Positions 3,611 through 41,472 are shown, counted from the first letter of the stretch. The stretch: DNA of 64,000 nt from Lineus longissimus (GCF_910592395.1 NC_088312.1:2869858-2933857); one strand, 5' to 3'. Notes: generated by a model from the letters alone, not told the origin. Numbers and translations: made by a program.

Positions 3611-6600
3611 GATGCGGTAATCGATCTCAAACTCCCTATAAATTTCTTTTATAGAACAGATCTCATCGCAAACCTTTGCTATAACTTCTAACGTCAACTC
3701 GAGTGGTTAGGGTCAAGAATAACAGTGGCACGACTTTGAAGTCGATGCCTTTTGTGTTAGCATAATCAGAGTTTGCTTATCGTTGGCTCGAGAAAATACC
3801 CTCGGTGTGTGATCGCGCAGTTGTCCATTGTGCTGACAGGCAGAACCATTCTCTGACAGGCAAAATAGTTTTCTTTACTTTAATTCAAAGGAAAACAGCA
3901 TATAAATGGGTTATTTGCTATTTGCTACCAGCGTTCGTGCTCGACCGGCCCGTCCAGCGATAGTCACGGTTGTACGCTATACTCCGTCAAAAATGGAGTC
4001 AACCAGTAGTCAGTAAGAAATCTAATGATTAAACTGTGTACTAAAGGGTTTGCTCGAAAAAAATCTTAAAATTTCTAGATTTTTGGTCTCCATTGGTCAC
4101 CAATATCAACATTTTCTATCTCTCAATGAGGAAACTGCTTACCACATTCCTACCACTTACCACATTCTTCACTCTTATCGGCAATATCGACGCGAACCAA
4201 GATCATTCGCGAAATCTGCAAGCAGCTTGCAGTATTTCTGCGAACTTACATGAGCAATGAATGCAATCTCAAGCAGAACATGATTTCAAAGGCAGCCGAT
4301 TGTTCTTTTGCAGCCAGAACAAACCCTGTGTGGGTTATTACAACAAATGAACACAAGCACTCTATCGATTTCTGTATAGGACTAATAATGCTGACATATC
4401 CAATGTGGAGACGGTGAACGGTGTTCCATGACTACAGGGCACGCTTGTCATCACGTTTGTTTGTTTTACTAATATCACAGCGATTCTTTGAGAGAAGCCG
4501 CTGCCGCCGCGTGATGCTGCTGGCGATATCGTCAGACACTTTGATGTATCTGATGCCACGAAATGATGGTACAGAGAGATAGAGTGACGACGTGTGTATG
4601 CATAATGCACTTCATCACCGTTTGCGGGGAAATTATTCTTAAGTAATCATTTGAGAAAAGCAGCCCCCCCCCCCAAACAAAATATTGTTTTATAAGTGTA
4701 GAGACACCCTGCTCAATTTCAAAATAAAAAAGCCAACATCTGACTGCTTAGTTATTGAGGATTGCCGTATATATCGGAGGCTGGATCTGCTTCATCCGTC
4801 TGCTCCTTGTATCCCCGGGTAGAACCTGACGTTTGATGAAGTACCTTTATCAGTACCTTTCAAGATTCAGACTCAGCAATTCGCTTCTCATTTGTTCCCG
4901 ACAGATAGGAGGAATTCGCCGGACGATGGTGGCGGCGCTGTTATCGGAGAATGCATTCTGCCGAATGGCGGTGTAAAAGTTTGAAATGTCCCAGGATAGA
5001 ATGTCCGGGGAAGAAAGAATTCTATTACCGGTATGCGCAAATCACGTTTCTCAGTCAATTGAAAAAGTGGAGAAATGGTCACTCCAAGCGAAACCGATGG
5101 GTACAGCTAGAGTAACCAAGCTTGGCTTGAACTCAGTTGGACTGAGAAATCTGTTATAGGCCTTATCTTATCGATCAATTACCTTGGACAGTTTGAAGGA
5201 GGTCGGTCAGAGCTTTGATCTGACGGAAAGTAATCAAACTAACTGATAACGTACATTGGATAGATGGCCTAGAGTAAATACTTATATATTTGATTTGATT
5301 ATGAAGGAATGTATGTGAGCCTTGTATACACTGTACAGACCTGTGTACGATGCACTTTAGATAGTGACGGCGGAGTATTTGCAAATCATGGCAAGGCAGA
5401 AAGAAATATTTGCTTTACATACCAAACCTACATCTAGAAGCTTCAATCTTATTTATACCTCCATGCTTCAATGGTTATGAAATTTATACAGTTCAGATGT
5501 GCTCATTACCTTGTACATGTAGATTTTAAAATGAGCAGATCAGTTCGTTAATGCCTAATTTGTTGCCCATCAAAACTGATAAAACTAATCTTCAAATTCG
5601 GGAATCGAGGAGATGAACGATCTTGCACTCGCAACATCACCTCTCCACGCTCCGCATGACATTTCCCAGTTAGTTTCGAGGTTGATCATTTTTTCCAATT
5701 CGCAGATCAAACGGAGTAGATCAAACATTGGCATCCGGTGTTTCTTATCAATCGTTTGCTTGTCACATTGGCGATGACGCGTCGGTGATTAATGACCACT
5801 CTATGCATTCAATTAGCATCAACGAAGAAGACAAAGCAAGCGAAGGAAATGCAATTTCGGAACGCATGCAACCTCAGCGACCTAACCCCCATTTTAACTC
5901 TCAGGTTTCGTTTTACATTTAACTCCAATCAGGTTTGGTCGTTTCAGCACCGAAGAACCTAAGAATTCAAGGTGACTTTTCGAAAGGTTTGGTCGTTCTT
6001 CCGGACATTCGCCTGAAAAGTAATTTCCTGGGTCCTGATTAGGCCTATATTTGCACCTCCGGTGAGTCTGCATCATCTCGAATACCAGGGCCCGGGGCCG
6101 TCGTATGCTCCTTCCCACGCACACGTTGCATAAGCATGGTCATTGCAGCCGCGAGTAAAGGCTCTGATGCTCAGGATGCTGGCACATACCCCTTTTAATT
6201 TCTGACAGCTATACGTGGTGTATGCTCCAGCGCTTTCGTCTGTAAACTGATAAAGAATCACCTTAATGGCGACCTTTGACATTCCTGGAAATGTGGAACT
6301 CACCAGGCAGTATATACATACTCCCGGGAGTTGACTCTCCTTGGCCAATACTACGCCAGAACAAAGAGCCATAAATGACAATGACTGTCACTAACATAAG
6401 ATAAACAGTAGCAATAAAACGTTCAGTTCATGGTAGCCAGCAATATAAATGTATTTATTATTCTGCATCCTCGATAGAGAGTGTATTTGCAGTGATGGAC
6501 AGTGCATGTGGTGGCTCCTTGAGTGTGAGTTCGCCAATACATGCACACTCGCATGTTAAAAAAATGCGCAGTAAATCATTCTGTCGTTTATGGTCGAATA

Positions 6601-8199: not shown

Positions 8200-8570
8200 T
8201 TCTTTGGTAACGGCTTTCTTTTTGACGGAAGCTTTCCAAAGACATTGACGTGAAGAAGGAATATTTGCTACTGACGCCCGAAATTGAAATTAAAACTTGT
8301 TGACAAAGGCGTTTCCTTTGACGAGAAAGGTTACGACAGAAGTTTACTGGAAGAAACTTTGCAAAGACGTTCCCTTGACAGAAAGAAGCTTTGCTCAAGA
8401 CATTCACTTGGAATAAAGAAGCTTTGCTAAGACGTTCCCTCGGGCAAAAGAAAGCTTTACTAAGACGTTCCCTTGGTAGAAAGAATCTTTCCTAAGGCAT
8501 TCACATGAAAGAAAGAAGCTTTATAAAATTCGCTCGGAAGAAAGAAGCTTTGCTAAGACAACTTGAGCCT
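8200..8570. repeat. ~32-bp minisatellite, agaaagaagctttgctaagacgttcccttgg, about 10 degenerate copies
   Basis: Tandem periodicity visible in the sequence. Confidence 0.7.
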
Positions 8571-9275: not shown

Positions 9276-10094
9276 AAGAGAAGGTAGATTCGGGTTTCAC
9301 AAGCAAAATCATAATCATAATCCAAACACCGATTGCGCGAGCAAATTGGCTAGAGTTTCATGAATGACCGAATTTCTGCACCCTAGCGGACAATGAACAA
9401 ACTACGGTCTGTGAAGGGAGTAATAATACTATCCCCGTTGGACTTGGGCCTGTCCTTGTACCTCTGCGTAAGGTGATGAGCGTTCACATCAGTCATCGCG
9501 GTACACTTTGGAAATGGTCCCTCGTCCGTACGGATATCCATAGTAAAAAGCGTATACGCCACTTGTCCTAAATGATGACTCTGATGTTCATCGCTGCGAG
9601 AGGATCATGGTCTGCGGACGAAGTTATCATCCTAACATGAGGAGCCTCATTGGCCTATATAGCTTCGTGTACAGAAATACTTGTACATCTTAATAGTGAA
9701 TTAAGAGTAGTTAAACTGTATTCCACTTTGCAATTATTTAACTGCTACAACAGTACTATCACAGGTTACCACGGCAACGCATTCTTCTATCAGAATGATC
9801 ATTTTGAAAGCTTTATCAACAGTCTATTAAATGGATTGGGATTTATTATTTCTGGGATTGGGCATATGTCTACCAACACCAATACCGGTACTGCCCCTAT
9901 CAAATGATCTGCGACCCACGGTCAAAGTGGAACAAAAGTTCATCACCACGGCTCTTACAGTCCATAAGGTCGACTCCCGGTACAAAATAAGATAAAACTC
10001 CATGACAATGGTCGTAATCACTAAGAATTTCTAGGCCCGGTACACATTGATAGACAGCGCTAATTACCCCAGCAGTAAAATAGGCCTAGATAGT

Positions 10095-10440
10095 GACCCG
10101 GGTCGCTACGTAGCGCCCCGGGACAGATTGTTTGGAGATAGGTTTGTCCCGGGGCGCTACGTAGCGGCCCGGGACAGATTGTTTGGAGATAGCATTGTCC
10201 CGGGGCGCTACGTAGCGGCCCGGGAAGGGTTGGATGGAGTTGGCGTTATACCGGGCCGCTCCGTGATAGGTTGTCGGGAGATTGCGTTGTACCGGGGCGC
10301 TACGTAGCGGTCCGGGTAGGGTTGGATGAAGTTTGCATTATACCGGGCTGGTCCGTGATATGTTGTTAGGAGGTTGCGTTATACCGGGTCACCCGGGTAG
10401 GGTTGAGTGGAGATGTGGTATACCCGGGACGGTTTGTTCG
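10095..10440. repeat. ~55-bp tandem repeat (cccgggacagattgtttggagata..gtcccggggcgctacgtagcggc) carrying the palindromic core cgctacgtagcg. Mirrored at 18380..18720.
   Basis: About six consecutive units. The translated ORF shows the repeating peptide GRYVAARDRLFGD. Confidence 0.7.
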
Positions 10441-10829
10441 ACAACGATGCTACCTGTGGTTGGAATAATTTCATTAATGATCACCTTGGTTTCTTTTGAT
10501 GATTAGTTAGCCTAAGACCGCAGTGGGGTCTCTAAAATGCGCTACCGGTTTCACGACAAATCATCCGAATTCCGTAAATATGATATCAAATCGCATGCAG
10601 ACACAAGCTAGACTTCAGACATACATAATTCTGAAGCCTGGATAAAAGATACAATGTACATGTGCATGTAGTACATAATTCTGTAGCCTGGATAAAAGAT
10701 ACAATGTACATGTGCATGTAGTACATATATATTGGCCTGGCAAAGTCATGAAGTATAGGCCTTGCTTCAGAGATGTTATGGACATATTAGGTCATTGTCA
10801 TCTGTTCTTTCCTCCGTCTGGATTCTCTC

Positions 10830-11230
10830 TTGGGATGAGGCACTGCTCTTGATAGGTCTACTACATGCCATCTCAACCAGGATAGGTTTTACCAGGCCTA
10901 CCCCCTCAGAGGAGACTATCTATGCAACTGCAATGACGAACAGGGACATCTTCTAGAAGGATTCTCCTTTGGGTTGGGGCACTCCGCCCTTGATAGGCCT
11001 ACTGCATGCCATGTCATCCACGGTGTGGGTTCTACCAGGCCTGCCCCCATAGAGGAGACTATCTATGCAACTGCAATGACGAACATGGACATCTTCTAGA
11101 AGGATTCTCCTTTGGCCTGCCCCCTCAGAGGAGACTATCCCTGTAACTGTAATATCGACCAGGGACATCTTCTACAAGGATTCTCCTTTGGGTTGGGGCA
11201 CTCCGCCCTTGATAGGCCTACGTCTGTTAC
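10830..11230. repeat. ~130-bp satellite (3 copies: gaaggattctcctttgggttggggcactccgcccttgataggcctactgcatgccatgtcatcc..gaggagactatctatgcaactgcaatgacgaac). Mirrored at 17640..18020.
   Basis: Direct repetition visible in the sequence. Confidence 0.65.
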
Positions 11231-12194
11231 GGATCAACTCTGAAACAGTTTCAACTCTGAAAGACACCAACTCAACTTTGAAACTGCATCTCTGAAAGTA
11301 TGAAAGCCTATGACCGCAGTGGGTTCTCTAAAATGCGCTACCGGTTTCACGACAAATCAACCGAATTTCGTAAATATGATATCAAATCGCATGCAGACAC
11401 AAGCTAGACTTCAGATAAACATAATTCTGAAGCCTGGATAAGATAAAAGATACAATGTACATGTGCATGTAGTACAAATATATTGGCCTGGCAAAGTCAT
11501 GAAGTAATAGGCCTCGTTTCAGAGATGTTATGGACATATTTATTAGGTCTTTGTCATCTGTTCTTTCTTCCGTCCGTTTCATATTTTCTTATTGATTTTG
11601 AAACCTTTTGTCCTTATATGTTAATGTTTTTGGAACAAAGAGATTGATACCCTGTTCACGGATGTGTAACAGCGCACTACTCCATGACCTGTGTAGGCCT
11701 ACTACTGTACGTGCATGCGTGTGTGCACATACAGTCTGTTGATGTACACACACGCTGTGTATGCCCTATTCCAAATTGACTCCTTCCCGCGCTCGTCACC
11801 AAGGCAACTCCAATTAGACATAAGGAAGTCCAGGCTTCATTCGTAGATGTTCGTATCAAAATTGCCGAGCACTACCGAAGTTGGATGGGATATAGCAATG
11901 CAGCAGGCAGGTGGGAGAGGGGGGGACTCTTATAAATAGGCTAGGCCTAGAGATAGGTTGTGTCGTGACATGTCCTCGGCGACTGTTGTCTCATCTTTAG
12001 GCCTACTCTCGGAATAAGACACCAGCTGGGTGAAACACTAGGCCTACACCCCCTGCCTTATGAAGTATATAGGCCTAAAGGTTGTGACAATCCTCGCTGT
12101 TAATTGTCTCATCTCTCCGAACTATGGGTTGTGACTTGTCTCCAGCGACTATCTTGATAGGCTAGGCTACCAGAGGACACCAAATTTGGTCCTG

Positions 12195-12765
12195 CCTAAT
12201 ATTATTAACATCATTATCCGCATCATCATCATCATCATCTTTCGGTAGGCCTAAATGGTAGGGCGCAGTTTGCGCGTTATTAACCATGAAGTAGTTGCTC
12301 ATTACGCAGACGGTGCACAGACGTTTATAAAATCTTGGTCGGTGCGATTAGAACGATAAAATCTGGAGGTTAAAAAAGTTGTGGTCTACGCGGAGCTGGA
12401 GGCTAGGGGTCTTGGCAGATGTTGTCGCTTCTGGGAGGGTGTTCCAGCTTCTGATCGTTCTGTGGAAGAAGGATGATGCCTCTTGCTGGGTGGTATCTGT
12501 CCAGGCCTCGGGTCCTTGGGTCGCCCATGGTGATGGAGTCTGGGGCGACGAAGTCCACGAGGCTGTGCCGGATATTGTAAAGCACTGTAGTGATGCCTTC
12601 CTTCTCCTCTCTTTGAGTGTATCCCACTGTAGGGTTTGGAGTTGGCGGGTGACAGATCCTGCACTGTCAGCAGCACAGCAGCAGTATGTTGTTCTTTGCG
12701 ATCTGTCTCATCTTGGTAGGTCTAGCCCCCCCCCCCCCCACAGGACACATTGGTTCTGTCTATGA
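12195..12765 (-). mobile_element. Mirror copy of the 5'-truncated LINE 3' end in the left palindrome arm
   Basis: Reverse complement of 15130..15745. (ATC)n/(ATT)n tail at 12207..12245. Confidence 0.6.
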
Positions 12766-12850
12766 TATCATAGGTTGTGACATGCCTTTTGCGACTATCT
12801 GTCTCATCTTGGTAGGCCTAGCCCCCCCCCCCCCCTCCCCACAGGACTTG
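12690..12850. repeat. Poly-C minisatellite (~75-bp unit ggttgtgacatgcc(t)ttgcgactatctgtctcatcttggtaggcctag + C12-15) at the inner edge of the left arm
   Basis: Two units visible, each ending in a C12-C15 homopolymer. Confidence 0.7.
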
Positions 12851-14619
12851 TCCTTGTAAGGCCATCTCGATCTACCTGGGACAAATTTATGCCCGGGAGA
12901 TATGCGTGTTTCGTCTCTCTCTGAAACATACACCCCATCCTGTTTCTGTGGGGACTATTGAGACGCTGCTTTAGTCGAGCAGTCTAGACAGCCTAATGCG
13001 TACGCTTTATACCTGAAAACAAGGGGCCTTTGATAATGGCCCCCTTTCCTCAAAATGAATGTTATTTCAGTATTAAGTACAGGCAGAGTCTTTCTATACA
13101 AAGAATATATAGAATTGTACAAATAATTGTATAGAAAGACTCTGGTACAGGCGACTTGCAACCGGCTTAAACCCGCAGACAGAGTATATTATTATACATC
13201 TAGGCCTAAGCCTAGGCCTTTTTAGCCAGCAATTGATCGAGGATGAGAAGATGAATAATGTCTTCTGTGTCCGAGGGTTATAGCCGGTGCTAGGCATGTC
13301 ACTGCACATAGGCATATTACAGGTAAAACCAGGTATTATACCAGTAGGCTTACTAATCTAGGCTACTGTGTCCGCGGGTTTTAGCCGTTTGCGGGTCGCC
13401 TGTAAAAATACCTTTTTTTATACCTGTAATAGGCCTATGTGTGGTGCTATTCTAGCACCGGCTAAAACCTGCAGACACAGTAGGCGTATACAATTATTTA
13501 TTTTGTACAGGCGACCTGCAACCGGTAACCCGCGGTCATAGTAGTTGGCCTATCTCGATGTAGCCCCACTTTGCTTTGCTCGAATAATTATATAATTCGG
13601 GGACAAGCACTTCAGTTTAAAAATAAACTTTTTCATGCCGGTGAGAAGTTTAAAATGTCCTACGTTAAAATGTCCGGGAACAAAGGATTCTATTATGCGC
13701 TTCAATCTCTGAGCTATTGACGGTCAGGGTCTCTATAGAACCATATTGCAGAATACAATAGGGCCGGACACTTTTTCCAGGCGGGACACTTTTTACTTTT
13801 ACACCGGATCCACAGGGCTAAATCAGAGTCATTCTAAACAACTGTTTAGAATGACTCTGGCTAAATGAATCAGATACAGTACCGGGATTATTATCAATTT
13901 GGTTTATTATTTGGTTTATTATTTTGTATCTCACAGAGATATTAAACACCAAGTGTTTTCTTATAGTAAAGCATAGTACAATTCAATTTATTTCATCTTG
14001 TTAATGCCCATGGGGCTGTTACAGATATATCATGAAGCATAGGCCTATGAGGAGAGACGAAATAATGTTCAGTAGGGGCCCATGTAGGCCTATACCCTAT
14101 AGCTAGGTAGGCCTATAGTACAGGACGCCAACACACGACCCCCAATAAGCAACCCAGTTCCTCACCCCGACCGCTTAATAAACGCGTGGGGATTACATAA
14201 AAGGCCTGAATTCACCCATGTGTATGCCACGCGATTGTGTTGTAGTAATTAAGATTGGATGTAGGCCTAATTATTGTGTTTGTTGGAACCAGCTTCCTTG
14301 AACCAAGCAGCGTGTATTATTATAGGCTCTTTTGGGCTACCATCTTGGACAGGTTTAGGCATGCACTGTAGTGTATAAAAGATGACTTTAATGGAGTTTT
14401 TCTGTAGAAATACTGATGATTGTTTGCACCTCTTTTATGCTTCAGCCCAGATACAAAATCTTCTGAAAATAGCATTTTAGTGTTCTGCTTATAACATAAC
14501 TTTGTATGACTGTGATTAGATTAAGTTTTCACCAAATGAAAGACAAATAAATGACATTTAAGGCCCTACTTGTTATTCGTTGTGAAGATGATTCGTCATT
14601 CAAAAATGTCATGCTCATA

Positions 14620-15115
14620 CATGGTATGAAAGATTGGTGTCCTATTGTACCAAAATGAAACAGATAGTCGCAAAGGACATGTAAACCCTTGATAAAAGGC
14701 AGGGCAAGGTGTCGTGTTCTATATACTAAGATGAGACCACAGACTCGCAAAGGACATATAATATCATAGACAGAACCAAGGTGTCCTGTTGCACCACGAT
14801 GACACAGTAGTCGCAAAGCTAGGGCATGTCACAACCTTTAATATCATAGCCAGAACCAATGTGTCCTGTGGGGGGGGGGGGGGCTAGGCCTACCAAGATG
14901 AGACAGATAGTCGCAAAGGACAGTCACAACCTATAATATCCATAGACAGGACCAATGTGTCCTGTGGGGAGGGGGGGGGGGCTAGGCCTACCAAGATGAG
15001 ACAGATAGTCGCAAAGGGCATGTCACAACCTATGATATCATAGACAGAACCAATGTGTCCTGTGGGGGGGGGGGGGGCTAGGCCTACCAAGATGAGACAG
15101 ATCGCAAAGAACAAC
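14620..15115. repeat. Poly-G minisatellite (the same ~75-bp unit in reverse complement, ~5 copies) at the inner edge of the right arm
   Basis: Repeated ctaggcctaccaagatgagacagatagtcgcaaagg.catgtcacaacctat.atatcatagacag.accaatgtgtcctgtgggg(G)n. Confidence 0.7.
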
Positions 15116-15129
15116 ATACTGCTGCTGTG

Positions 15130-15745
15130 CTGCTGACAGTGTCCTTCATAGGCAAGACCAAGGTGTCCTTACTAAGATGCAGATAGTCGTAAAAAGGGCA
15201 GTCACAACCGACCTACTGGAGCGAATTCAACGAAGAGCAGCGCGATTTTTTTTGTCACCAATGAATACAGAGACCGAAGACCAGGATCTGTCACCCGCCA
15301 ACTCCAAACCCTACAGTGGGATACACTCAAAGAGAGGAGAAGGAAGGCATCACTACAGTGCTTTACAATATCCGGCACAGCCTCGTGGACTTCGTCGCCC
15401 CAGACTCCATCACCATGGGCGACCCGAGGACCCGAGGCCTGGACAGATACCACCCAGCAAGAGGCATCATCCTTCTTCCACAGAACGATCAGAAGCTGGA
15501 ACACCCTCCCAGAAGCGACAACATCTGCCAAGACCCCTAGCCTCCAGCTCCGCGTAGACCACAACTATTTTAACCACCAGATTTTATCGTTTTAATCGCA
15601 CCGACCAAGATTTTATAAACGTCTGTGCACCGTCTGCGTAATGAGCAACTACTTCATGGTTAATAACGCGCAAACTGCGCCCTACCATTTAGGCCTACCG
15701 AAAGATGATGATGATGCGGATAATGATAATAATAATATTAGGCAG
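15130..15745 (+). mobile_element. 5'-truncated non-LTR (LINE) retrotransposon 3' end: degenerate ORF2 C-terminal domain plus 3'UTR ending in a (GAT)n(AAT)n microsatellite tail
   Basis: The conserved ORF2 C-terminal signature RAIFFVTNEYRDRRPGSVTRQLQTLQWDTLKERRRKASL / LYNIRHSLVDF / FFHRTIRSWNTLP is split across three frames. This matches the ..QRRAARFVTNDYRR.SSVT.ML..L.W..L..RR...RL.M.YKI.H.LV....FFPRTIRDWNSLP tail common to invertebrate jockey/CR1/RTE-type elements. A microsatellite terminus follows at 15700..15740. Confidence 0.6.
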
Positions 15746-16484
15746 GACCAAATTTGGTGTCCTCTAGTAGCCTAACCTATCAGGATAGTCGCTGGAGACA
15801 CGTCACAACCCATAGTTCGGAGAGATGAGACAATTAACAGTGAGGATTGTCACAACATTTAGGCCTATATACTTCATAAGGCAGGGGGTGTAGGCCTCGT
15901 GTTTCACCCAGCTGGGGTCTTATTCCAAGAATAGGCCTTAAGATGAGACAACAGTCGCCGAGGACATGTCACGACACAACCTATCTCTAGGCCTAGCCTA
16001 TTTATAAGAGTCCCCCCCCCCTCTCCCACCCGCCTGCTGCATTGCTATATCCCATCCAACTTCGGTAGTGCTCGGCAATTTTGATAAGAACATCTACGAA
16101 TGAAGCCTGGACTTCCTTATGTCTAATTGGGGTTGCCTTGGTGACGAGCGCGGGAAGGAGTCAATTAGGAATAGGGCATACACAGCGTGTGTGTACATCA
16201 ACAGACTGTATGTGCACATACGCATGCACGTACAGTAGTAGGCCTACACAAGTCATGGAGTAGTGCGCTCTTACACATCCGTGAACAGGGTATCAATCTC
16301 TTTGTTCCAAAAACATTAACATATAAGGACGAAAGGTTTCAAAATCAATAAGAAAATATGAAACGAACGGAAGAATGAACAGATGACAAGGACCTAATAA
16401 ATATGTCCATAACATCTCTGAAACGAGGCCTATTACTTCATGACTTTGCCAGGCCAATATATTTGTACTACATGCACATGTGCA

Positions 16485-17397
16485 CTCATGGTCAAAAGTT
16501 TATGGACACCAGATTTTGCACATTTTCTCAAAAACGGCTAATCCTTTTTTACCCAAATTTTCACCAATGTTGGAGAATCTTCTTGGCTATCGAATGATAT
16601 CATAGTTGATATCAGGACCAATTGCATAACAAAGTTATTACATACTTTTGAGGGGCATCTATTTTCACTTTTTGGTTGATGGATTTTTTAAATCGAAGTA
16701 TAAATCTTGCATCATACAGATAACAATGCTAAGACTTTCTGTGCAGAAAGTATTTAAAAATATCATTTACTTTTCATGATATATCAAAATATCAAAATTT
16801 TTATTTATCCATATTCTGAAAATTTTGAGATTTTTTTGATTTTTCGTTATATCCTAGTAGTACCCATGTCCCCTGAATGAATGGTGATTTTTTTCTGATT
16901 TTCAACTAAAGGAACATCTTGAAATTATAATATGAACATTTTCATACTACCAAGTATCCACCTTTTCTCAGCAATATTAGTTGCTAGCTGTGCTAAATTG
17001 GTGCCATTCATTATTTGGGTATGACTTCTCAATGATACAGTTGCAAAAAACCCAAAAATATCAAATTATCAAAATATCAAAATATCAAAATTTTGATATT
17101 TCGATATATCTCAAAACCGAAATGAGATTTATCCAATTTTTTTCACAGAAAGTCTTAGCAATGTGCAAGATATAATGTAGGGTAAATTTGGTTTTGAAAA
17201 ATTGATTAACAAAAAGGTAAAAAAAGATGCCTCTCAAAATGATGTAATAACTTTGTTATGCAATTGGTCCTGATATCAACTATCACGTCATTCGATAGCC
17301 AAGAAGATTCTCCACCATTGGTGAAAATTTCGGTTCAATAGGATTAGCCGTTTTTGAGAAAATGTGCAAAAACTGGTGTCCATAAACTTTTGAACAT
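16485..17397. mobile_element. Foldback/MITE-like non-autonomous element with ~230-bp terminal inverted repeats and an AT-rich core of (atatcaaaat)n repeats
   Basis: gtcaaaagtttatggacaccagattttgcacattttctcaaaaacggctaatcc.. at 16488 is the reverse complement of ..ggattagccgtttttgagaaaatgtgcaaaaactggtgtccataaacttttgaac at 17340. The whole block interrupts the sequence that is contiguous in the left arm (~11455). Confidence 0.7.
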
Positions 17398-20300
17398 GAT
17401 TGTACATTGTATCTTTTATCCAGGCTTCAGAATTATGTTTGTCTGAAGTCTAGCTTGTGTCTGCATGCGATTTGATATCATATTTACGAAATTCGGTTGA
17501 TTTGTCGTGAAACCGGTAGCGCATTTTAGAGAACCCACTGCGGTCATAGGCTTTCACACTTTCAGAGATGCAGTTTCAAAGTTGAGTTGGTGTCTTTCAG
17601 AGTTGAAACTGTTTCAGAGTTGATCCGTAACAGACGTAGGCCTATCAAGGGCGGAGTGCCCCAACCCAAAGGAGAATCCTTGTAGAAGATGTCCCTGGTC
17701 GATATTACAGTTATAGGGATAGTCTCCTCTGAGGGGGCAGGCCAAAGGAGAATCCTTCTAGAAGATGTCCATGTTCGTCATTGCAGTTGCATAGATAGTC
17801 TCCTCTATGGGGGCAGGCCTGGTAGAACCCACACCGTGGATGACATGGCATGCAGTAGGCCTATCAAGGGCGGAGTGCCCCAACCCAAAGGAGAATCCTT
17901 CTAGAAGATGTCCCTGTTCGTCATTGCAGTTGCATAGATAGTCTCCTCTGAGGGGGTAGGCCTGGTAAAACCTATCCTGGTTGAGATGGCATGTAGTAGA
18001 CCTATCAAGAGCAGTGCCTCATCCCAAGAGAGAATCCAGACGGAGGAAAGAACATATGACAATGACCTAATATGTCCATAACATCTCTGAAGCAAGGCCT
18101 ATACTTCATGACTTTGCCAGGCCAATATATATGTACATCATGCACATGTACATTGTATCTTTTATCCAGGCTACAGAATTATGTATGTCTGAAGTCTAGC
18201 TTGTGTCTGCATGCGATTTGATATCATATTTACGGAATTCGGATGATTTGTCGTGAAACCGGTAGCGCATTTTAGAGACCCCACTGCGGTCTTAGGCTAA
18301 CTAATCATCAAAAGAAACCAAGGTGATCATTAATGAAATTATTCCAACCACAGGTAGCATCGTTGTCGAACAAACCGTCCCGGGTATACCACATCTCCAC
18401 TCAACCCTACCCGGGTGACCCGGTATAACGCAACCTCCTAACAACATATCACGGACCAGCCCGGTATAATGCAAATTTCATCCAACCCTACCCGGGCCGC
18501 TACGTAGCGCCCCGGTACAACGCAATCTCCCGACAACCTATCACGGAGCGGCCCGGTATAACGCCAACTCCATCCAACCCTTCCCGGGCCGCTACGTAGC
18601 GCCCCGGGACAATGCTATCTCCAAACAATCTGTCCCGGGCCGCTACGTAGCGCCCCGGGACAAACCTATCTCCAAACAATCTGTCCCGGGGCGCTACGTA
18701 GCGACCCGGGTCACTATCTAGGCCTATTTTACTGCTGGGGTAATTAGCGCTATCTATCAATGTGTACCGGGCCTAGAAATTCTTAGTGATTACGACCATT
18801 GTCATGGAGTTTTATCTTATTTTGTACCGGGAGTCGACCTTATGGACTGTAAGAGCCGTGGTGATGAACTTTTGTTCCACTTTGACCGTGGGTCGCAGAT
18901 CATTTGATAGGGGCAGTACCGGTATTGGTGTTGGTAGACATATGCCCAATCCCAGAAATAATAAATCCCAATCCATTTAATAGACTGTTTATCCCAGAAA
19001 AAGCAACCCCTCTCATATTTACTAGAACGCGCGGCAGCGTTGCACGAAGAATGAAAGGAAGCGCCAGTAACATGCACTCCATTTGCTCTTTGATCTCGGC
19101 GAAGGCTCAGGAGTCGTCATTGATATTTCTTTTCGGGGGCATCGAATTAGTGGCGTAGCGGTAGATTGGTGCAGACAAACCTCGTTCTCATGGTTTTCCG
19201 ATTCTGTACTCATCTTTGACGACCCAGCCTGTTCGTTGGTTTCTCTACTTGTGTCTCAAACAACGGTGTGTGCTCTCGGCGCATGTTGATGTGGTCGGGC
19301 CCCTGGGGTTGGACCTGCAGAAAATGGGGTCCGAGCATTCCTCATGTTCATAAGTAGAAATTGAGAGCGGTAACCTAAGAAAGAAGCTCTAATGCATTGG
19401 CTTTATAAAGACCAACCGACAATCATGTGTCAGTATTCATGCCATATTTCCGACCAACGGCAATATGAAAACCAAGGCATCTGTTCCGTGAGGTCAGTTG
19501 TTCAGGATTTTGCGTAAAGATAACCAGCTTCATGATTGGAGTTATGGAACGATTTCACATTCTGGATGTCAGCACCAGGATAGATATACCTCTTCTCACA
19601 TGCTTAACCACTTGTATCTTGATTTATTGGGTGTAGAGGTATCTTTACCAATGATTAGTGTAACCTTTGCACAGGTAATTCCTCTGAAGATGTTTGTATC
19701 CAATTATCGACCATAAAAATTACTAACTCCAAGCCGATGGTTACACTTGCAGCGACATCAAAGCTGCTATGACTCATGAAGAAAATCTTGCCCACAGGTG
19801 ACATAATAGCAACGCATGCTGGTCCGGGCAACAGATAGGAATGTACCACTGCCATGTACAAAGATATTGTAATGAAGAACCTTTCGCAGGGACACCCCAA
19901 GGATGTCGTTGATTGGTAGCAGTGGTGAAGTTATACTTTGTATTTGCCACATTGGAATGTTACACACCTGTTTTGGAACAATCATAATCACAATAACGCA
20001 GTCATCAAGATGATACCGGCATGCACGCCTTCTCTCCCACAGACCGGAACTACGTTTATTGACGTCGTTCCGAAAATCTTCCGAGCCGCTGTACGCGTGG
20101 AGATGAGCTAATTACTGTAAATTCGAAGCAACTTGCTGTGCGTCAGAATTTGACAGACAACAATATTGATACATATACATATAGTATGACGTCATCCAAG
20201 ATGACTCGTTCTTCAGCATCCGTATCTGATAGATAATGTTCCAGGCGAACGCTTCAAAAGTCCTCGTGCTGAGCGAAACGGAAGCAACGGGTTCGCATTT

Positions 20301-35639: not shown

Positions 35640-35960
35640 ATCGAATAAGTTGCCTGTGTGTATGTGCTGTAGTTGCCTGTGTGTGTGTGCTGTAGTTGCC
35701 TGTGTGTGTGTGCTGTAGTTGCCTGTGTGTATGTGCTGTAGTTGCCTGTGTGTATGTACTGTAGTTGCCTGTGTGTATGTGCTGTAGTTGCCTGTGTGTA
35801 TGTGCTGTAGTTGCCTGTGTGTATGTACTGAAGTTGCCTGTGTGTATGTACTGTAGTTGCCTGTGTGTATGTACTGTAGTTGCCTGTGTGTATGTACTGT
35901 AGTTGCCTGTGTGTATGTACTGTAGTTGCCTGTGTGTATGCACTGTTTTGCCTGTGTGGG
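35640..35960. repeat. 26-bp tandem repeat (gtagttgcctgtgtgtatgtgctgta) x12 in ANKRD6-like intron 1
   Basis: Near-perfect periodicity. It generates the spurious repetitive ORFs 35590..36006- and 35636..36169-. Confidence 0.9.
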
Positions 35961-39897: not shown

Positions 39898-41472
39898 TCA
39901 AAGCTTAGCATCAAAACTGTCATTGCTGTGTCCATCTATGTCCATTGCTTGTTCCTGCTCCTCATGATCTGTTTGCCACACTCCCTGGCTGTGGCACCAA
40001 TGTGGCTTATCTCTCCCTTTTGTGACTTGCTTCTTGATGACCGGTTTAGTGGGAACAGGAGGAGGAGCTGGTACGTTCCGTTTTTTCGGATTGATGTAGG
40101 CCGTCTGCTGTTCTGTTTGGATCATTCTGTCCAAGGGCAGTGTATCAGCGGAAATTTGCTTATCCGTGTCGAGAGGCTTGTCTAGAGTTACCGGCTGGCC
40201 CCAGAATATTGGTGCATGCTCTGGTGATGGGCTTGCTGACTGCTGTCTTTGTGGCCTATTTTGGTAGATTGGCCCCGGCTGTACAGGCGACACTGGTCTC
40301 TGGCACAAGGTTTCATCTTGATAAACACGTTTTGGGTATCCAGGTTGTGCTACCTTTGATTGGTTCATTGGGACAATGGGCACCGGCCTCTGCTGTACAG
40401 GCGACACCGGTCTCTGCTGTACAGGTGATGCCGGTCTCTGCTGTACAGGCGATGCTGGCCTCTGCTGTACTGGGTGCACTGGTCTCTGACACAAGGTTTC
40501 ATCTTGGTTAACAAGCTTTGAGTTCCCAGGTAACTCTCCCTTTGCTTGGTTCATCGGTACAATGATTGGAAGTACCAAGACTTGCTGCTTGTTTTTCTTC
40601 AAAGTGTTAATGGTTTTCTCATCCAGAATCAGCTGCCCCTTCCTTAGATCTGGATTTTCCCCGCTTTGAACTTGGTGTTCAGGTATAGATCTCGCGTCTT
40701 CGACCTCTTCACTCTGGATCGGGTCTGGATCTGTTATGACTGGTGCCTGTGCTTCTGTTGTTTTGATGATATTGGCTCCTGAAGGCTCTGGTACCATGAA
40801 AATGTTCGCACCTGACTTTGGCACAACAATATTCCGTTCTGTTGACTTTTGGTGTTTTTTCTCCATCAGAATTTTAAGGGTTTGACAATGTTTACAGCGG
40901 GGACATCCCATCTTATGCAACGTGACATTCCGTGAATAACAATTCAGGGCCTGCACGATTGTTATCAAAATCTCACAGCAAGCGAAGACAACATACAGAA
41001 TATCCAGTGCGATCTTTCCACGGGCAGCTTTTGAACTAACCGGTACAATCCTTGGGCAAAGTATTGTCGAGTCAGTGTCCGAGAGATCAAGCACGATGGC
41101 GATTCCTCCAAAAACGATGGCCGCTGCTGCTATCATACCTGCTAGAAAACAAAATGTGATAGTTGTCATCACATACTTGCGTCCTCCATGATAAACTGTC
41201 AATATTCCCAGGAGTCCTGCTATGATGAAAAACACACCGCCCCATATTCCTATGCATATGATACCCATGCAAGTGTTCAGAAAGAAACAGCCAAGTCCGA
41301 TGGCGATGAAGCATAATCCGAAAACGATTTGCATAACTCCACAATAGAGGGCGGTAGCTTCACTGAATCCATATTTCTCGGTACGATATTGGTAATATGG
41401 CGAAGAGAGGGGATTGGTTCCATCAGACCGGATGCTGTTCCCACGTCTGAATTGGAGAGTCTCGTACTCCAT
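39898..41472 (-). CDS. Intronless 524-aa four-transmembrane protein (CD20/MS4A/sarcospan-like topology) with a proline-rich tail containing tandem SPVQQRPA octapeptide repeats. Nested antisense in ANKRD6-like intron 6.
   Basis: Uninterrupted 1575-nt ORF. Four hydrophobic 22-29 aa segments (ALYCGVMQIVFGLCFIAIGLGCFFL; MGIICIGIWGGVFFIIAGLLGILTV; YVMTTITFCFLAGMIAAAAIVFGGIAIVL; IALDILYVVFACCEILITIVQAL) with a very short first loop. TM1 has the GxxQIxxGL CD20-like signature. The C-tail repeats are encoded by a 24-bp DNA repeat. Confidence 0.6.
   Translation of the reverse strand: MEYETLQFRRGNSIRSDGTNPLSSPYYQYRTEKYGFSEATALYCGVMQIVFGLCFIAIGLGCFFLNTCMGIICIGIWGGVFFIIAGLLGILTVYHGGRKYVMTTITFCFLAGMIAAAAIVFGGIAIVLDLSDTDSTILCPRIVPVSSKAARGKIALDILYVVFACCEILITIVQALNCYSRNVTLHKMGCPRCKHCQTLKILMEKKHQKSTERNIVVPKSGANIFMVPEPSGANIIKTTEAQAPVITDPDPIQSEEVEDARSIPEHQVQSGENPDLRKGQLILDEKTINTLKKNKQQVLVLPIIVPMNQAKGELPGNSKLVNQDETLCQRPVHPVQQRPASPVQQRPASPVQQRPVSPVQQRPVPIVPMNQSKVAQPGYPKRVYQDETLCQRPVSPVQPGPIYQNRPQRQQSASPSPEHAPIFWGQPVTLDKPLDTDKQISADTLPLDRMIQTEQQTAYINPKKRNVPAPPPVPTKPVIKKQVTKGRDKPHWCHSQGVWQTDHEEQEQAMDIDGHSNDSFDAKL

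Follow-up and report, generated by a model that had tools for sequence, protein, structure and literature searches.

What is the very long inverted repeat found in a stretch of the Lineus longissimus genome, and how did it get there? The stretch (GCF_910592395.1 NC_088312.1:2869858-2933857, 64,000 nucleotides; hereafter, the window) was first examined from its sequence alone, and that original prediction described a 9.2-kb palindrome that could be a site of instability, a giant foldback transposon, or an assembly artefact. We followed it up computationally and place the unit at window positions 9818-18989. We hold, with roughly even confidence, that it is a genuine non-coding unit with non-autonomous foldback-type architecture, which most likely arrived whole. 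Three signs suggest a discrete inserted unit: the TATC direct repeat at its outer ends, the arrays of (A/C)CCGG(G/T) motifs 66 bp from those ends, and the density of the 8-bp palindrome TAGGCCTA. The unit shows no sign of a cellular function or of gene content.

Extent and identity of the inverted repeat

Both a repeat finder and BLAST retrieved reverse-complementary blocks that are collinear over 9815-12847 and 14959-18992. The arm blocks measured 863, 770, 470, 459, 334, and 174 nt and presented 93-99% complementarity. Exact complementarity starts at 9818 (AACAGTCTATT...) and ends at 18989 (...AATAGACTGTT), so the palindrome is where it had been predicted, with its ends corrected from 9811-18985. 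The unit consists of three parts:

9818-12847 (+): left arm, 3,030 bp, recovered by BLAST, repeat finder, and alignment
12848-14958 (no strand): spacer or middle domain, 2,111 bp
14959-18989 (-): right arm, 4,031 bp, reverse complement of the left arm

The arms account for 7,061 of the 9,172 bp. Two arms of about 3 kb had been described, which holds for the left arm and not for the right one; the right arm owes its greater length to a 920-bp insertion and to 140 bp missing from the left arm. The spacer, first given as 2.4 kb, is shorter than that. The self-alignment proposed to measure arm identity (gapped and global) returned eight blocks; of 2,966 aligned positions, 39 are mismatched, a 98.7% match. 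This palindrome is far above chance expectation and is the sole inverted repeat of at least 60 nt in the 64-kb window, which contains no N gaps.

Ends of the unit and flanking repeat

At each outer end, a short direct repeat is followed by a terminal domain and a motif array:

9814-9817 (no strand): direct repeat TATC, left copy, candidate target-site duplication
18990-18993 (no strand): direct repeat TATC, right copy
9818-9883 (+): terminal (flanking) domain, 66 bp, AACAGTCTATTAAATGGATT..., mirrored at 18924-18989 and the same in both arms
9884-10440 (+): subterminal array of about 15 (A/C)CCGG(G/T) motifs, mirrored at 18367-18923

TATC abuts both outer ends exactly, a coincidence with a probability of 0.0045 for random site pairs in the window. 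Counting the last 1-2 T of the right arm, the flanking repeat can also be read as TTATC or TTTATC. Insertion through a staggered cut predicts such a direct repeat, whereas a template switch at microhomology predicts GATA on the right, of which the observed sequence fits only in the central AT.

The sequence of the terminal domain appears nowhere else in the window beyond the two arm ends. Since the motif array begins 66 bp inside each end, the arm ends coincide with a natural sequence boundary and not with an arbitrary breakpoint. The (A/C)CCGG(G/T) motif reaches 11-20 per kb in the array, against 0.2-0.4 per kb outside the palindrome (30-60 times denser). Within the array (10097-10388), tandem repeats of 51 bp (2.5 copies) and 92 bp (2.2 copies) are built around the palindromic core CGCTACGTAGCG, present four times in each arm. 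These two take the place of the tandem repeat that had been reported with a 55-bp period.

The Rfam scan gave no match at gathering score. Two sub-threshold 'miRNA' matches (10091-10224 and 18583-18710) were rejected, as they reflect only the hairpin-forming tandem repeat.

If the unit was inserted, the empty site would read GCTTTATCCCAG, within ...GAAAGCTTTATCCCAGAAAAAGC.... When the unit is excised with one TATC copy, 9650-9817 is joined to 18994-19158 and a stop-free frame of 113 codons appears, for which the search found no homologues. This frame is therefore no evidence of a disrupted exon at the site.

Shared composition of arms and spacer

The window contains 34 copies of the palindrome TAGGCCTA, where shuffled sequences predict 0.54, and 26 of the 34 lie inside the unit (the others are at 6040, 28981, 36177, 37832, 50496, 60199, 61267, and 61283). 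The left arm and the unique spacer each hold 3.3 copies per kb and the right arm 1.9-3.9 per kb, against only 0.10-0.16 per kb in the flanks and zero in a younger miniature inverted-repeat transposable element (MITE) that interrupts the right arm. Arms and spacer are thus about 20-30 times denser than the flanks (spacer vs. flanks, p = 5e-7), and the density across the unit body, about 3 per kb, is roughly 200 times the expectation from base composition. Being rich in arms and spacer and poor in the flanks, TAGGCCTA marks one compositional unit apart from its surroundings.

The contexts of the motif are unrelated: satellite units, minisatellite units, the 3′ untranslated region (UTR) of a long interspersed nuclear element (LINE), and unique DNA. 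Perfect copies number 26, vs. 17 one-off variants. Among the minisatellite units, the older have CCT-TACTAAG at the place where the younger have CCTGTG(G)nCTAGGCCTACCAAG, which hints that TAGGCCTA may have arisen by insertion beside TA. Under the unlikely reading of an undescribed giant foldback family, the motif could be a binding site for the transposase of the element or for a host factor, or the footprint of repeated local transposition. Literature searches on TAGGCCTA/AGGCCT gave primers and unrelated papers only.

The arms might be two independent head-to-head insertions of one transposable element family, about 2 kb apart. No other source gives rise to as many genomic inverted repeats as paired repeat-element copies in opposite orientation, and both outer ends do stop at exactly the same base, as full-length family ends would. 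However, neither arm has a flanking duplication of its own (TATC/TTGT for the left arm and ATGT/TATC for the right arm), and the outer ends lack the poly(A) or microsatellite tail that marks a retroelement 3′ end. Moreover, the spacer shares the TAGGCCTA enrichment, which is unexpected for ordinary intervening DNA. We consider this origin very improbable. Duplicative inversion by intramolecular transposition was also rejected, since it predicts inverted, not direct, flanking repeats.

Repeats within the arms

Inward from the motif array, the arms are made of nested repeats, listed here with left-arm coordinates except for the right copy of the LINE:

10509-10818 (+): unit A, copy 1, mirrored at 18040-18298; holds a 50-bp duplication exclusive to the left arm
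10820-11221 (+): satellite with 143-bp and 76-bp periods, mirrored at 17636-18037
11305-11574 (+): unit A, copy 2, mirrored at 16367-16482 and 17403-17552, with the MITE between
11575-11925 (left arm): unique DNA
11926-12200 (left arm): degenerate units of the 98-bp minisatellite
12215-12661 (-): LINE 3′ end, left copy, 5′-truncated, with C-terminus of open reading frame (ORF) 2, 3′ UTR, and (GAT)n
12662-12847 (+): poly-C/G 98-bp minisatellite, left, well preserved, about 1.9 units
15208-15716 (+): LINE 3′ end, right copy, 5′-truncated and frameshifted, LLERIQRRAARF...SFFHRTIRSWNTLP, 3′ UTR, and (GAT)n

The two copies of unit A are 78-81% identical and, together with the satellite and a linker, unit A forms a macro-repeat of about 796 bp. 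These copies had been described as units of about 280 bp resembling short interspersed nuclear elements. Two units of 270-310 bp are indeed found in each arm, but that label is not supported, as they present no pol III-type similarity and no copies elsewhere in the window. For unit A, the ARAGORN tRNA search was empty, the Rfam scan (E up to 1) found no similarity to tRNA, 7SL, or 5S, and no copies were found outside the palindrome in the 64-kb window. The satellite had been given a 130-bp period, which our measured periods replace. The poly-G/C minisatellite was borne out, with a period of 98 bp; its right copy (14648-15207) exceeds the left one (12662-12847) in length.

The 5′-truncated LINE ORF2 C-terminus with a microsatellite tail was also correctly recognized at the outset. 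An exhaustive HMMER search with the frame of the right copy (15254-15568) matched 44 proteins at their C-termini (best E = 1.9e-14), and in one of them (P0017) the RVT_1 domain lies directly upstream of the matched region. Once corrected for frameshifts, the LINE tail aligned to residues 987-1096 of P0052 (1,106 aa; 45% identity, E = 1e-21), a protein with endonuclease and RVT_1 domains. A word-indexed protein search with a frameshift-corrected tail gave no match, and a cluster look-up yielded no names for the related proteins. The (GAT)n tail of the right copy is at 15705-15716. This copy is dead, with at least two frameshifts. In the left copy, a 140-bp deletion has removed the first 74 bp of the fragment.

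The LINE lies within a minisatellite unit and splits it (...CACAACC / LINE...(GAT)n / TAATAATATTAGGCAGGACC...), which makes the minisatellite older than the LINE insertion. As a side observation, P0002, a predicted protein of 477 aa from another organism, is composed of tandem LINE-tail motifs (...QQSFFHRTTKEWNSLPRTV...); tandem arrays derived from LINE 3′ ends evidently occur elsewhere too.

The anatomy of the arms is where formation in place has to be weighed, that is, an inverted segmental duplication with no mobility and a coincidental TATC. A double-strand break or stalled fork by oppositely oriented 98-bp units would let a 3′ end fold back, copy the arm outward, and join the other end. 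The formation of palindromes from short inverted repeats is an established mechanism, reportedly described by Tanaka et al. (PNAS, 2002). In line with this route, about 310 bp of older degenerate units (14648-14958) persist on the right with no counterpart on the left, and beyond them identity rises abruptly to about 99%. Besides, the arms are made of ordinary nested repeats, and there is no other copy within the window. However, this route does not predict the exact 4-bp outer direct repeat (chance 0.0045), and only a 2-nt AT microhomology fits template switching. It also requires that the endpoint fall by chance within 66 bp of the edge of the CCGG array and near the edge of the TAGGCCTA-rich island. 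We regard formation in place as a serious alternative, although a less likely one.

Differences between the arms

The arms differ in three indels and in one segment of raised divergence:

16483-17402 (+): foldback MITE, 920 bp, right arm only
10622-10721 (+): left-arm-only 50-bp tandem duplication (10622-10671 repeats 10672-10721)
15142-15281 (+): 140 bp only in the right arm, a minisatellite-like unit and the LINE 5′ start
11459-12220 (+): arm segment of raised divergence, including the degenerate minisatellite units at 11926-12200

A foldback insertion exclusive to the right arm had been predicted at 16485..17397, and its presence stands with corrected limits. The inverted arms of this MITE are about 365 bp long and 82% identical; they start with CACTCATGGTCAAAAGTTTATGGACACC, the other end being a near-perfect inverse, and 26 of the terminal 28 nt are identical between the inverted ends. 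At this site, the left arm has ...CACATG-TA-CATTG... where the right arm has ...CACATG-TG[MITE]TA-CATTG.... The TG/TA flanks are a TA duplication plus one later substitution, of the kind produced by Tc1/mariner-type elements, which the MITE resembles. Tc1-type ends begin with CA, and from this feature and the TA flanks we infer the superfamily. No other copy of the MITE was found in the window.

The duplication described as 60 bp at 10620..10740 is confined to the left arm, as reported, but its unit is 50 bp. For the 140-bp difference, the LINE frame runs through 15142-15281, so this segment is ancestral and the left arm deleted it. The two arms are then, as originally argued, distinct sequences that have diverged since the duplication: the right one gained the MITE with TA-type flanks, and the left one gained 50 bp and lost 140 bp.

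Mismatches are unevenly distributed, with 24 in 762 bp (3.15%) at 11459-12220 vs. 15 in 2,204 bp elsewhere (0.68%; Fisher p = 2e-6). We infer that gene conversion between the arms spared the patch beside the MITE heterology. The patchy divergence fits conversion between the arms of a real, long-lived structure; mosaic ancestry would predict an equal pattern of arm divergence.

These differences also bear on the assembly. Two haplotypes could have been joined inverted at the poly-G minisatellite, or a long read could be chimeric. The divergence of 1.3% and the presence or absence of the MITE and of repeat units are possible allelic differences in a polymorphic invertebrate, and the inner junctions lie in error-prone repeats rich in G14 homopolymers. 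Read-level foldback artefacts have near-identical halves that map within 200 bp of each other on opposite strands (PMC12338684). Here, however, the arms are separated by a unique spacer of 2,111 bp and differ by indels of 920, 140, and 50 bp and 39 substitutions. Moreover, a haplotype mis-join should extend the homology into the left flank, in reverse complement, whereas it stops at the same base in both arms, within unique sequence, so a second, independent mis-join would be needed. The window has no N gaps. We find an artefact improbable.

The locus had also been presented as a classic site for cruciform extrusion and instability, which seems overstated given the 2.1-kb spacer, the 1.3% mismatch, and the 920-bp heterology. 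Inverted repeats are less unstable the longer their spacer and the greater their divergence, an exception being long single-stranded DNA (PMC10164571). Hairpins or cruciforms are expected to be rare here, with occasional inversion of the middle and gene conversion between arms, not frequent breakage.

The spacer

Most of the spacer (12848-14647) is unique non-coding DNA, and the remainder (14648-14958) consists of the extra degenerate minisatellite units without partner on the left. The spacer contains no ORF of at least 100 aa, and a six-frame Pfam scan with stop codons masked found no domain above threshold. Its single match elsewhere in the window is 63 bp long. The possibility that the spacer is a late insertion into a once-perfect palindrome was dropped, since no flanking duplication surrounds it. 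At 13084-13545, a motif of about 40 bp (TACAGGCGACYTGCAACCGG...GACACAGTAG) is clustered in the spacer, where its five copies alternate in orientation and form small nested hairpins that look like stacked miniature inverted-repeat elements.

Comparison with known systems

The unit presents the architecture expected of foldback elements: long inverted repeats that make up most of the element, terminal and tandem-repeat domains, and a short non-coding middle. The proposal of a giant foldback transposon consequently stands as the leading reading, for which we point to the 4-bp direct repeat, the end-adjacent motif arrays, the non-coding middle, and the shared composition. As the unit encodes no transposase, its movement would need an enzyme made elsewhere.

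Two foldback systems of Drosophila are informative. Tetris, from Drosophila virilis, has three structurally complete copies, and its arms are composed of flanking, tandem-repeat, and inner domains around a non-coding middle (PMC4079207). Our unit resembles it in the three-domain long inverted repeats, the variable non-coding middle, and the lack of transposase, and Tetris has flanking target-site duplications, for which TATC is the candidate counterpart here (PMC4079207). However, Tetris is multi-copy and has no sequence similarity to the unit (PMC4079207). Galileo, from the P-superfamily, lengthens its arms by expansion of tandem repeats and by recruiting internal sequence in inverted orientation, and its non-autonomous copies are made up nearly wholly of long, internally repetitive inverted repeats, as seen here (PMC3573991). 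Recruitment of the Galileo type would explain the minisatellite, the LINE tail, and the satellites within the arms. On the other hand, Galileo has a transposase-encoding relative, and the arms of our unit carry unrelated passengers (LINE tail and satellites).

Several observations weigh against an inserted foldback element. Its candidate duplication, TATC, has only 4 bp and is known from a single copy, vs. 7-10 bp in known foldback families, and such a match can arise by chance. We know of no superfamily that we could name for the AACAG termini. Neither the termini nor the arm components have a second copy in the remaining 55 kb of the window, and searches of metagenome contigs with the tandem-repeat core and with the terminal 23-mer gave 0 matches each; with no further copies in either, there is no proof of mobility or of family membership. 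Compared with the arms of Tetris (up to 1,735 bp), those of our unit have about twice the length, with a 4-bp instead of an 8-10-bp, Mutator-like duplication; compared with those of Galileo (up to about 1.25 kb), they have about three times the length, with 4 bp instead of its 7-bp duplication. Besides, the arms are plainly mostly ordinary genomic repeat DNA, which is equally expected of a segmental inverted duplication. Finally, the inner arm ends lie within an inverted minisatellite with extra units on one side, which formation in place predicts.

Outside the foldback elements, the palindromes of mammalian sex chromosomes (P1-P8 of the human Y, and those of the X) are similar in having a unique spacer and arm-to-arm exchange, seen here as patchy divergence (PMC8600007, PMC8327919). 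They differ in their size of more than 10 kb to megabases, an identity above 99-99.9%, testis-expressed gene families, and conservation under selection (PMC8600007, PMC8327919). Large gene-bearing palindromes have arms of more than 8-10 kb with at least 99% identity and genes, whereas here we found arms of 3-4 kb with 98.7% identity, containing only repeats and a dead LINE tail. Palindromes and fold-back inversions that begin at short inverted repeats after double-strand breaks, in yeast and mammalian cell models (PMC10164571 for the fold-back of spaced inverted repeats), also retain a loop and have inner junctions in a short pre-existing inverted repeat. However, they usually give dicentric or amplified chromosomes and not a bounded 9-kb unit with a direct repeat.

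For the foldback reading, a plausible course of events can be proposed. The long arms would have arisen by inverted duplication, inside the element, of ordinary repeat-rich DNA, namely the 98-bp minisatellite that already carried the LINE tail, the 143-bp satellite, and the macro-repeat of roughly 800 bp. The whole unit would then have inserted through a staggered cut that duplicated TATC. Later, the arms may have diverged by insertion of the MITE, the 140-bp deletion, and the 50-bp duplication, while gene conversion between them would have held most of their length at about 0.7% divergence and let the 0.76-kb patch beside the MITE reach 3.2%. A further step would be to regard the unit as a member of an undescribed giant foldback family, with 3-4-kb arms, a 4-bp duplication, and a body full of TAGGCCTA, outside the Mutator-like and P-like groups; this we consider unlikely.

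Other features of the window

Apart from the palindrome, the window contains two long frames and several tandem repeats:

8351-8560: 32/65-bp tandem repeat, 6.6 copies, 1.3 kb upstream of the palindrome
35648-35958: 23-bp minisatellite, 13.6 copies, 96% matches
39898-41472 (-): intact ORF of 524 aa
43582-45864 (+): stop-free frame of 760 aa
53610-54938: satellite with 154-156-bp and 310-bp periods, two blocks with about 1.2 kb in total, 90-92% matches, located in a region of strongly negative GC skew

The 524-aa ORF, which is not itself on record, weakly matches a CD20-like domain (four-pass membrane type) and has a tail of proline-rich repeats (QRPxSPVQ). A search of 5.8 billion proteins gave one homologue, with 62% identity, from a JGI metagenome contig; with this single homologue, the host lineage seems very poorly sampled. 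The 760-aa frame is of low complexity, rich in R/Q/S/N, and without a Pfam domain, and is probably a large exon of an uncharacterised gene.

Conclusions

The unit at 9818-18989 is a real and well-delimited inverted repeat, non-coding and of foldback type, unless it is an ordinary inverted segmental duplication. It is a fairly ordinary piece of a repeat-rich genome and not a new kind of system, and since it has neither gene content nor a sign of cellular function, its wider importance is modest. The most curious by-product is the local concentration of TAGGCCTA. If it is mobile, it extends the known size range of foldback-type elements and shows arms swallowing genomic repeats. If it formed in place, it offers a clean, datable case of inverted duplication from a short inverted repeat, followed by conversion between the arms, in an invertebrate-like genome. 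For annotators, it marks a spot where assemblies and read mappers may err, and at which the 2.1-kb middle can be inverted by arm-to-arm recombination. Finally, under the unlikely reading of an undescribed giant foldback family, the unit, if transcribed, could also yield hairpin RNA against the LINE family found in its arms.

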